Assembly: GCF_003790525.1 (NCBI RefSeq)
Contig: NZ_CP033635.1
Reading direction: 5' to 3' (one strand)
Length of the DNA: 64,000 bases
Origin: Escherichia coli
GTDB taxonomy: Bacteria; Pseudomonadota; Gammaproteobacteria; Enterobacterales; Enterobacteriaceae
The notes beneath the pieces are model-generated. The model was given only the letters and a program-made list of their open reading frames with translations. It did not search any database and was not told where the DNA came from. The translations under genes were made by a program, and so were the position numbers. The first letter of the stretch is position 1; every line of letters begins with the position of its first letter. This document shows positions 1 through 53,703 of the stretch, piece by piece.

Positions 1-797
1 ACCGAAACTCCGTGGTGTAGTGCGTTTGTTGGTGCGGTGTTCCCTGCGCCAGCGGGGATAAACCGTTGGTATTAACGGGAATGTAGTCACTCCAGGAGTG
101 TTCCCTGCGCCAGCGGGGATAAACCGGCGATCGTATTTTCCGCTACGTCGCTCAAATGGTGTTCCCTGCGCCAGCGGGGATAAACCGTCGTTGATGGTGT
201 GATGAGTGTACAAAAAAAAGTGTTCCCTGCGCCAGCGGGGATAAACCGACGACTGAATCCGGCGAGGCTATCAACTGGCCGTGTTCCCTGCGCCAGCGGG
301 GATAAACCGCCGCACACGTCGAGCTGGTGGGGATTAATGCTGTGTTCCCTGCGCCAGCGGGGATAAACCGCAGTAAACGTTCGCGCGTTCTCGCGCTCAC
401 GAGTGTTCCCTGCGCCAGCGGGGATAAACCCTCTGTGTATTCGCTACCAGCCAGCACCGGTACGTGTTCCCTGCGCCAGCGGGGATAAACCGCAGGGTAA
501 CTGGCTGCTCCTCAACCATTCCGCGTGTTCCCCGCGCCAGCGGGGATAAACCGGGGTTTTAGCGACCGGACCAGAGTACGCAACAGTGTTCCCCGCGCCA
601 GCGGGGATAAACCGTTGCGCCTTAAGTTCCTTAACTTCCTCTGTATGTGTTCCCCGCGCCAGCGGGGATAAACCGGGAGTGATGAATTGGAAGTAACGGA
701 TAACCGCGTGTTCCCTGCGCCAGCGGGGATAAACCGGACGCACTGGATGCGATGATGGATATCACTTAGAGTTCCCCCCGCCCCTGCGGTAGAACTC
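1..797 (+). CRISPR. Type I-E CRISPR array, iap-proximal (distal) end; 13 repeats in window including a degenerate terminal repeat; truncated by window start
   Basis: 29-bp repeat GTGTTCCC(T/C)GCGCCAGCGGGGATAAACCG at a strict 61-bp period starting at 37,98,159,220,281,342,403,464,525,586,647,708; 32-bp unique spacers; degenerate repeat GAGTTCCCCCCGCCCCTGCGGTAGAACTC at 769-797; positions 1-36 are the end of a further repeat plus one spacer. Confidence 0.97.
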
Positions 798-25308: not shown

Positions 25309-25770
25309 ATGACTATTTGGGAAATAAGCGAGAAAGCCGATTACATCGCACAGCGGCATCGTCGCCTACAGGACCAGTGGCACATCTACTGTAATTCGCT
25401 GGTTCAGGGGATCACGTTATCGAAAGCGCGCCTGCATCACGCCATGAGCTGCGCGCCGGACAAAGAACTCTGTTTCGTCCTTTTTGAACATTTTCGTATT
25501 TATGTCACCCTGGCGGATGGCTTTAACAGCCACACCATCGAGTATTACGTCGAAACAAAAGAGGGTGAAGACAAACAGTGGATTGCGCAGGCGCAACTGA
25601 GCATTGACGGCATGATTGATGGCAAGGTCAACATCCGCGATCGGGAACAGGTTCTGGAACACTATCTCGAAAAAATCGCTGGCGTTTACGACAGCTTATA
25701 TACCGCCATTGAAAACAATGTGCCGGTGAATTTAAGCCAACTGGTAAAGGGACAAAGCCCGGCAGCATGA
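25309..25770 (+). CDS. hycA: Formate hydrogenlyase regulatory protein HycA
   Basis: 153-aa ORF, recognised HycA. Confidence 0.93.
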   Translation: MTIWEISEKADYIAQRHRRLQDQWHIYCNSLVQGITLSKARLHHAMSCAPDKELCFVLFEHFRIYVTLADGFNSHTIEYYVETKEGEDKQWIAQAQLSIDGMIDGKVNIRDREQVLEHYLEKIAGVYDSLYTAIENNVPVNLSQLVKGQSPAA

Positions 25771-34055: not shown

Positions 34056-36946
<2,891 letters not shown>

Positions 36947-38364: not shown

Positions 38365-38892
38365 ATGAACCGTTTCATCATTGCTGACGCGAGTAAATGT
38401 ATTGGTTGCTGTACCTGTGAAGTGGCGTGCGTGGTTTCTCATCAGGAGAATCAGGACTGTGCATCGCTGACCCCGGAAACTTTTTTACCGCGAATCCATG
38501 TCATTAAAGGTGTGAACATTTCTACGGCAACAGTCTGCCGTCAGTGTGAAGATGCACCGTGTGCTAACGTCTGCCCGAATGGTGCTATCAGCCGTGATAA
38601 AGGGTTTGTTCATGTGATGCAGGAACGTTGCATTGGTTGCAAAACCTGCGTTGTGGCTTGCCCGTATGGCGCGATGGAAGTGGTGGTACGTCCGGTGATT
38701 CGCAACAGCGGCGCGGGGCTGAATGTACGGGCTGACAAAGCCGAAGCCAATAAATGCGACCTCTGTAACCATCGTGAAGACGGCCCGGCGTGTATGGCGG
38801 CTTGCCCGACCCATGCGCTGATTTGTGTCGATCGTAATAAACTTGAACAACTGAGCGCAGAAAAACGTCGCCGTACGGCGCTGATGTTCTAA
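38365..38892 (+). CDS. hydN: Electron transport protein HydN (4Fe-4S ferredoxin-type)
   Basis: Start trimmed to [22 protein letters not shown] (175 aa); four Fe-S cysteine clusters. Confidence 0.92.
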
Positions 38893-50834: not shown

Positions 50835-51920
50835 ATGTTCAAGCGTCGTTATGTAACATTGCTTCCCCTTTTTGTGTTGCTTGCCGCCTGTAGCAGCAAG
50901 CCAAAACCTACTGAGACTGAAACGACCACCGGAACGCCGTCTGGCGGCTTCCTGCTTGAGCCGCAGCACAATGTGATGCAGATGGGCGGTGACTTCGCCA
51001 ATAACCCGAATGCCCAGCAGTTCATCGACAAAATGGTGAACAAACACGGTTTCAATCGTCAGCAGTTGCAGGAAATTCTCTCCCAGGCGAAACGTCTGGA
51101 TTCGGTACTGCGGCTGATGGATAACCAGGCACCAACCACATCGGTGAAACCGCCATCAGGTCCGAACGGCGCATGGCTGCGTTATCGCAAAAAATTTATT
51201 ACGCCGGACAACGTGCAGAATGGTGTGGTTTTCTGGAATCAGTATGAAGATGCGTTGAATCGCGCGTGGCAGGTGTATGGCGTACCGCCGGAAATTATCG
51301 TCGGGATTATCGGCGTTGAAACCCGTTGGGGGCGCGTGATGGGGAAAACCCGTATCCTCGATGCGCTGGCAACGCTGTCATTTAACTACCCACGCCGCGC
51401 GGAATATTTCTCTGGCGAGCTGGAAACCTTCCTGTTAATGGCGCGCGACGAGCAGGACGATCCGCTCAATCTGAAAGGTTCCTTTGCCGGGGCGATGGGC
51501 TACGGACAGTTTATGCCGTCGTCTTACAAACAATATGCGGTAGATTTCAGCGGCGACGGGCATATCAACCTGTGGGATCCGGTTGATGCCATTGGTAGTG
51601 TGGCGAACTATTTCAAAGCGCACGGCTGGGTGAAAGGTGATCAGGTTGCGGTAATGGCAAACGGTCAGGCTCCAGGCTTGCCAAATGGCTTCAAAACCAA
51701 GTACAGCATTTCGCAGCTTGCCGCGGCAGGTTTAACGCCACAGCAGCCGCTGGGCAACCATCAACAAGCCAGCCTGCTGCGTCTGGATGTTGGAACAGGT
51801 TACCAGTACTGGTACGGTCTGCCGAACTTCTACACCATTACCCGTTATAACCACAGCACCCATTACGCAATGGCGGTCTGGCAGTTAGGACAAGCCGTGG
51901 CGCTGGCGCGCGTGCAGTAA
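50835..51920 (+). CDS. mltB: Membrane-bound lytic murein transglycosylase B
   Basis: Start trimmed to MFKRRYVTLLPLFVLLAACS (lipoprotein signal, 361 aa); ORF track start at 50730 is an upstream extension. Confidence 0.92.
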   Translation: MFKRRYVTLLPLFVLLAACSSKPKPTETETTTGTPSGGFLLEPQHNVMQMGGDFANNPNAQQFIDKMVNKHGFNRQQLQEILSQAKRLDSVLRLMDNQAPTTSVKPPSGPNGAWLRYRKKFITPDNVQNGVVFWNQYEDALNRAWQVYGVPPEIIVGIIGVETRWGRVMGKTRILDALATLSFNYPRRAEYFSGELETFLLMARDEQDDPLNLKGSFAGAMGYGQFMPSSYKQYAVDFSGDGHINLWDPVDAIGSVANYFKAHGWVKGDQVAVMANGQAPGLPNGFKTKYSISQLAAAGLTPQQPLGNHQQASLLRLDVGTGYQYWYGLPNFYTITRYNHSTHYAMAVWQLGQAVALARVQ

Positions 51921-52064
51921 CTCTTTGCAAGAGGGGGGCGTGAGCTTCCCTCTGGCTAATCAGCTTTTTTCTGAATCCTCCTCGTAAAATTGCAACGCCA
52001 ACACCATCTTCCTGACGAAAGTGCTATCTTGTCCGGCATAAATTTTTGACTGACAGAGGTTGTG

Positions 52065-52538
52065 ATGACTGACAGTGAACTGATGCAGTTAAGCGAACAG
52101 GTTGGGCAGGCGCTGAAAGCCCGTGGCGCAACCGTAACAACTGCTGAGTCTTGTACCGGTGGTTGGGTAGCGAAAGTGATTACCGATATTGCCGGTAGCT
52201 CCGCCTGGTTTGAACGCGGATTTGTCACCTACAGTAACGAAGCCAAAGCGCAAATGATCGGCGTACGTGAAGAGACGCTGGCGCAGCATGGCGCGGTGAG
52301 TGAACCCGTCGTGGTGGAAATGGCGATAGGCGCACTGAAAGCGGCTCGTGCTGATTATGCCGTGTCTATTAGTGGTATCGCCGGGCCGGATGGCGGCAGT
52401 GAAGAGAAGCCTGTCGGCACCGTCTGGTTTGCTTTTGCCACCGCCCGCGGCGAAGGTATTACCCGCCGGGAATGCTTCAGCGGTGACCGTGATGCGGTGC
52501 GTCGTCAGGCTACTGCGTATGCATTGCAGACCTTGTGA
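52065..52538 (+). CDS. pncC: NMN amidohydrolase PncC (CinA C-terminal domain), apparently 8 codons shorter than the K-12 protein
   Basis: ATG at 52065 (MTDSELMQLSEQ...), 157 aa ending ...ALQTL then TGA; a second in-frame stop 8 codons later at 52560-52562. Confidence 0.88.
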   Translation: MTDSELMQLSEQVGQALKARGATVTTAESCTGGWVAKVITDIAGSSAWFERGFVTYSNEAKAQMIGVREETLAQHGAVSEPVVVEMAIGALKAARADYAVSISGIAGPDGGSEEKPVGTVWFAFATARGEGITRRECFSGDRDAVRRQATAYALQTL

Positions 52539-52558
52539 CAACAATTTCTACAAAACAC

Positions 52559-53703
<1,145 letters not shown>

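Follow-up and report, generated by a model that had tools for sequence, protein, structure and literature searches.

A probable strain-private W158* substitution trims the C-terminal end of PncC upstream of recA in an Escherichia coli genome

Introduction

The enzyme that deamidates NMN in Escherichia coli, PncC, is encoded by a non-essential gene whose complete loss would merely shift NMN recycling. In the reference strain K-12 MG1655, the pncC coding sequence (b2700) measures 498 nt, that is, 165 codons plus the stop, and carries TGG (Trp) at codon 158. Mutagenesis of CinA from A. tumefaciens (AtCinA) has defined catalytic and substrate-binding residues, namely S31, C32, Y58, K63, T105/G106, and R145 (PMC5384747), that correspond to conserved residues of E. 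coli PncC. For genes that acquire a premature UGA followed by C, the relevant background is that bacterial termination is inefficient with C at position +4, especially at UGA, and that tRNA-Trp misreads UGA in E. coli (PMC5289835). A search of the literature for E. coli UGA-C read-through rates returned mostly eukaryotic work, the only usable material being the review-type statements of the latter source (PMC5289835).

Here we examine pncC in a 64,000-nucleotide stretch of E. coli DNA (the whole of which we call the window), where the gene ends eight codons earlier than in K-12 and immediately upstream of the recA promoter. We compare the locus with K-12, with its close relative SMS-3-5, with thousands of complete E. 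coli genomes and with deposited proteins and metagenomes, and we weigh a genuine nonsense mutation against a consensus error, a recoding signal, and a change acting on recA.

Results

A premature TGA at codon 158 of pncC

The mltB - pncC (ygaD) - recA gene block occupies positions 50835-53703 of the window on the plus strand. Translation of 52065-52565 shows that the pncC frame opens with the ATG at 52065 and runs for 157 residues, up to ...AYALQTL, before a TGA at 52536-52538, so that the truncated open reading frame (52065..52538, plus strand) comprises 157 codons plus the premature stop where the SMS-3-5 and K-12 annotations have a 165-aa protein. Past this TGA, the same frame encodes QQFLQNT and meets another TGA 8 codons on, at 52560-52562, which is followed by a T; this organization of the two stops is precisely the one that a first-pass annotation had read from the sequence. 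The segment 52539..52562 (plus strand), with the QQFLQNT codons and the native TGA, is therefore the former 3' end of the gene, now untranslated, and the truncated gene encodes an NMN deamidase devoid of residues 158-165 (WQQFLQNT). The base 3' of the new TGA is a C, which makes the stop tetranucleotide UGA-C.

The same annotation had given K-12 PncC 165 aa, with TGG at the codon of the first stop, and the 498-nt MG1655 coding sequence bears this out. SMS-3-5 PncC has likewise 165 aa and TGG at codon 158. In a three-way alignment of the window, SMS-3-5, and K-12, position 52538 is the sole mismatch between window and SMS-3-5 in 701 nt, with K-12 also carrying G, and it is the sole window/SMS-3-5 mismatch across 24 kb. 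On the plus strand, the window thus has A at 52538 where every comparator has G, a change that turns the Trp codon 158 (TGG) into TGA.

Close kinship of the window with SMS-3-5

Over its entire length the window is colinear with the SMS-3-5 chromosome (NC_010498.1, 2887636-2951635, reverse complement), with 0 indels and only 4 substitutions in 64,000 bases, from which it follows that its source is a very close SMS-3-5 relative. This colinearity also indicates, by correspondence with the direct_repeat annotated as 'CRISPR' in the SMS-3-5 record (2950900-2952209), that the start of the window (1-736) lies inside the CRISPR array adjoining iap.

The other three substitutions fall in hycA, ascF, and hydN. 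At 25644, a CGC to CGG transversion in hycA is synonymous (R112R), and the window allele occurs in 0 of 5,406 complete E. coli genomes. At 36672, on the minus strand, ascF codon 92 reads GTG (Val) in the window and GAG (Glu) in SMS-3-5 (E92V); here SMS-3-5 is the odd one, since the window allele is common (its exact 61-mer is found in 682 records). At 38410, a C to T change in hydN (R16C) yields an allele present in 0 of 5,424 complete E. coli genomes. Classified by effect, and with pncC W158* at 52538 included, the four differences are one synonymous, two missense, and one nonsense, as is usual for genomes that separated recently. Some three private SNPs in 64 kb are also within what is normal for a clonal group, and one nonsense change among three is unremarkable.

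As a separate observation, hydN (38365-38892, plus strand) carries its R16C substitution within the first ferredoxin-type motif, which changes from CIGCRTC to CIGCCTC. The exact HydN R16C protein is very common elsewhere, in at least 1000 contigs, with names from Shigella sonnei and flexneri, and R16C looks like a recurrent change.

These comparisons bear directly on the possibility, also raised in the first-pass annotation, that sequencing or assembly consensus erroneously placed an A at 52538 in a strain that truly has TGG and a 165-aa PncC, which we consider unlikely, though clearly the most serious competitor of a genuine mutation. In favour of an error, the hycA and hydN substitutions, two of the remaining three, are like the A in pncC singletons among complete E. 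coli genomes. However, the differences are clean substitutions without a single indel over 64 kb, unlike typical long-read consensus errors, and some three private SNPs in this length are what isolates of one clonal group normally show.

The TGA allele among E. coli genomes, metagenomes, and orthologues

For a change of one base, the informative statistic is how frequent the allele is, and we therefore used as a probe a 61-mer centred on 52538. It had matches in 5,419 of 5,426 complete RefSeq E. coli genomes, each at 98.4% identity (one mismatch) and none at 100%, so that the A allele is found in 0 of the 5,419 complete genomes covering the site; the source genome of the window lies outside this surveyed set. 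A metagenome scan gave 0 matches to the exact 41-mer containing TGA. When the same 41-mer was relaxed to NNN at codon 158, it recovered 39 metagenome contigs, all of them (39/39) with TGG. The idea that K-12 and other strains might also have TGA at this codon, named in the first-pass annotation as the observation that would overturn its proposal, is thus contradicted by TGG in 5,419 genomes and in the 39 metagenome contigs, and the G to A nonsense change cutting off the last 8 residues that it had proposed is supported both by the alignment with K-12 and SMS-3-5 and by this population survey. The uniqueness of the A among 5,419 genomes and 39 contigs, together with the absence of the source genome from the searched set, is also what a consensus error would look like.

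Outside E. coli, the PncC orthologues of Citrobacter, Salmonella (including Salmonella bongori), E. albertii, and E. marmotae are all 165 aa long and conserve the QQFLQNT tail, with residue 158 being Trp or, in E. albertii and E. marmotae, Arg. We also sought natural family members ending at position 157 or 158 and found a single candidate of 158 aa (P0150), which was rejected as a naturally short PncC because it is a partial, heavily miscalled sequence.

These data argue strongly against PncC being naturally 157 aa long or the UGA being a maintained recoding site (programmed read-through or selenocysteine insertion), a reading to which we give almost no credence. It draws on the leaky nature of UGA-C and on the downstream frame, which stays open for 7 codons up to the native stop. 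Nevertheless, a stop at codon 158 occurs in 0 of 5,419 E. coli genomes, where a maintained site would be conserved, and the orthologues of the four taxa mentioned above, all 165 aa long, carry Trp or Arg there. A natural length of 157 aa was rejected on the evidence of K-12 and SMS-3-5, the 5,419 genomes, and the orthologues taken together.

Deposited 157-aa proteins and an apparent recurrence of the allele

An exact-sequence look-up in a collection of 15 billion proteins retrieved the identical 157-aa protein from NCBI under three accessions (WP_121831914.1, AYW29305.1, and RLY44036.1), annotated as E. coli nicotinamide-nucleotide amidase and, compared as proteins alone, the same in sequence as the window product. 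These records most likely derive from the window's own source genome, and the two GenBank protein records (AYW29305.1 and RLY44036.1) may represent one isolate. The occurrence of the same protein under two GenBank accessions and a RefSeq WP number speaks against the A being a consensus error.

The look-up also listed 44 contigs, from which the 157-aa form could appear to be recurrent in nature, but inspection of these contigs led us to reject recurrence, as none of them supports the TGA allele. Nearly all of the other 157-aa contigs (L007-L014 and L055-L062) simply stop inside codon 158; such contig ends are over-represented because an exact-sequence look-up selects partial genes, a selection artefact. 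In one Logan contig (SRR12067198_323; L006/L054), the sequence runs from TTGTG into an Illumina adapter, AGATCGGAAGAGC, and this fusion generates a false TGA and, with it, the semblance of a 157-aa PncC among the collected proteins. The adapter fused after ...CCTTGTG at the 3' end of that contig reads AGATCGGAAGAGCG. A scaffold of an ENA metagenome (ERZ28663712 scaffold_4930; L005/L063), from an E. coli that differs from the window by about 2.6%, carries another allele, with TGG to TAG at codon 158 and CAA to TAA at codon 160; the change sits 33 nt from the scaffold end, and this TAG allele could be either a truncation that arose separately or an error at the end of the contig. Since the other 157-aa contigs retrieved are contig ends, adapter, or the TAG allele, support for TGA is limited to the NCBI records. 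No independent contig with TGA followed by CAACAA was found in the Logan, ENA, and JGI collections, and this lack of a read-derived TGA-CAACAA contig counts in favour of the error explanation.

What the truncation removes

Residues 1-157 of the window PncC match the SMS-3-5 and K-12 allele exactly, and the 157-aa product still carries the Pfam CinA domain PF02464, as do all its close homologues. In an alignment of 47 diverse single-domain CinA/PncC proteins, the invariant or near-invariant positions, including E28, S29 (near-invariant), C30, G32, G33, Y56, K61, G104, R142, and R146 among others, all lie before residue 158. The Ser/Lys catalytic dyad and the substrate-binding residues are accordingly present in the window product (S29, C30, Y56, K61, S103/G104, and R142), as counterparts of the residues established in AtCinA (PMC5384747). 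Past position 157 the family sequence is variable, although nearly all members of the alignment run for 5-15 residues more, with an amphipathic pattern.

An AlphaFold2 model of full-length PncC (mean pLDDT 95.7, pTM 0.91) superposes on solved CinA structures with a TM of ~0.9 and places the last helix at residues 142-162, with a pLDDT of ~97 at residues 151-160. The window product ends at 157, short of the complete C-terminal helix of the CinA/PncC fold, which extends to 162. According to the model, it lacks the last ~1.5 turns of this helix (5 residues, including W158, F161, and L162) and a 3-residue tail. The main product of the allele would therefore be a 157-aa PncC with the entire CinA/PncC catalytic core, and the predicted structure suggests that this protein has probably lost some stability but not its activity. 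The functional cost could even be close to nil, given that Trp158 is replaced by Arg in E. albertii and E. marmotae and that the tail of the family is variable.

Because the lost codon specified Trp, misreading of the new stop would restore exactly the wild-type enzyme: a small fraction of ribosomes would read through UGA-C via tRNA-Trp and synthesize the 165-aa PncC, terminating at the native TGA-T. A little wild-type PncC may thus still be made.

A further open reading frame of 74 aa (52348-52572, plus strand), in the +1 frame relative to pncC and ending in ...NNFYKTLDTV, overlaps the 3' half of the gene. Its tail recurs in 168-aa database entries named 'PncC' (P0007, P0151, and P0155). The two in which the junction is visible (P0151 and P0155) look like frameshifted gene calls and not a real alternative product.

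The recA promoter is unchanged

The recA coding sequence (52642..53703, plus strand, mapped from the SMS-3-5 annotation) shows no differences from SMS-3-5. A promoter scan of 51900-52750 found one sigma-70-type site, with 11 of 12 matches, formed on the plus strand by the -35 hexamer TTGATA (52559..52564), a 16-nt spacer, and the -10 hexamer TATAAT (52581..52586). The native pncC TGA constitutes bases 2-4 of the -35 hexamer, which is identical in K-12 and SMS-3-5, and the scan therefore agrees with the first-pass annotation in locating the second pncC stop within the recA -35. The motif CTGT-N8-ACAG has a single match in the entire window, at 52565-52580, which we take to be the recA SOS box; it forms the core of the LexA (SOS) box TACTGTATGAGCATACAGTA (52563..52582, plus strand), identical to that of K-12, which lies between the -35 and -10 hexamers and overlaps them. 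With a hexamer spacing within 16-18 nt and an overlapping SOS box, the site has the features of a LexA-repressed sigma-70 recA promoter. The sequence from 52539 through the recA start is identical to those of K-12 and SMS-3-5, with the -35, the SOS box, and the -10 all intact. The tight packing of pncC and recA emphasized in the initial reading is thus real, but it is a universal arrangement and no peculiarity of this strain: a pncC stop inside the recA -35 is the normal gene arrangement of every E. coli examined, visible in the K-12 annotation.

Between pncC and recA we detected no intrinsic-terminator-like site. Displacement of the pncC stop by 24 nt upstream would exert no polar effect on recA, Rho-dependent polarity being implausible because too little untranslated RNA (24 nt) is added.

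Position 52538 itself precedes the -35 hexamer by 21 nt, at about -55 from the presumed recA transcription start. The substitution might accordingly matter for recA and not for PncC, with a G to A change in an A/T-rich would-be UP-element region tuning basal recA expression and the truncation being a tolerated side effect. The proximity to the -35 would fit such an effect, as would the base change, which makes the already A/T-rich stretch CAACAATTTCTACAAAACAC slightly more so, and the conservation across genera of the DNA encoding the PncC tail, compatible with a dual coding and promoter constraint. In contrast, nothing indicates a contact of the RNA polymerase alpha subunit at 52538, the core promoter and the LexA box are unchanged, and the allele, a singleton, gives no indication of having spread or recurred, all of which makes this explanation very improbable. 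We hold in equally low regard a combined version, in which a real and selected mutation would have a dual effect, yielding the 157-aa PncC with a little of the 165-aa form and, at the same time, an altered UP-like recA element at about -55. Were it true, NAD salvage capacity would be linked with the basal recA level in this lineage.

Discussion

We conclude that position 52538 has probably undergone a real, strain-private, single-base G to A transition that introduces the W158* change into PncC, the product of a non-essential gene. On either of the two leading explanations, W158* is nothing out of the ordinary, being a mutation private to the strain or else an error of base calling, and the resulting 157-aa PncC, already deposited and named in RefSeq, is ordinary, already-known biology. 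Its importance hardly extends past careful annotation: the gene is best recorded as a pncC allele with a truncated C terminus, or else verified in the reads. The allele could nonetheless offer a natural experiment on whether PncC depends on the end of its C-terminal helix for stability, and a chromosomal read-out of tRNA-Trp read-through at UGA-C. The pncC stop within the recA -35 offers, for its part, a tidy case of overlap between coding and promoter sequence.

Compared with PncC of K-12 (YgaD, b2700; NMN aminohydrolase, PF02464), the window gene is the same gene, in the same position between mltB and recA and with the same catalytic residues, and differs in a product that lacks WQQFLQNT (TGG to TGA) and has a predicted last helix 5 residues shorter. 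In its stop tetranucleotide, the window pncC resembles the leaky UGA-C signals of E. coli, such as that of prfB (CUU UGA C). Its P-site codon, however, is UUG where prfB has the slippery CUU, and we saw no Shine-Dalgarno-like stimulator upstream, which led us to reject a prfB-like +1 frameshift; the window UGA-C site is also non-conserved, so that any read-through would be incidental and not programmed. Finally, the recA promoter with its LexA SOS box is the same as that of K-12 through the pncC tail, the native pncC stop lying inside the -35 there too, and the sole difference between them is the base ~21 nt upstream of the -35 hexamer.
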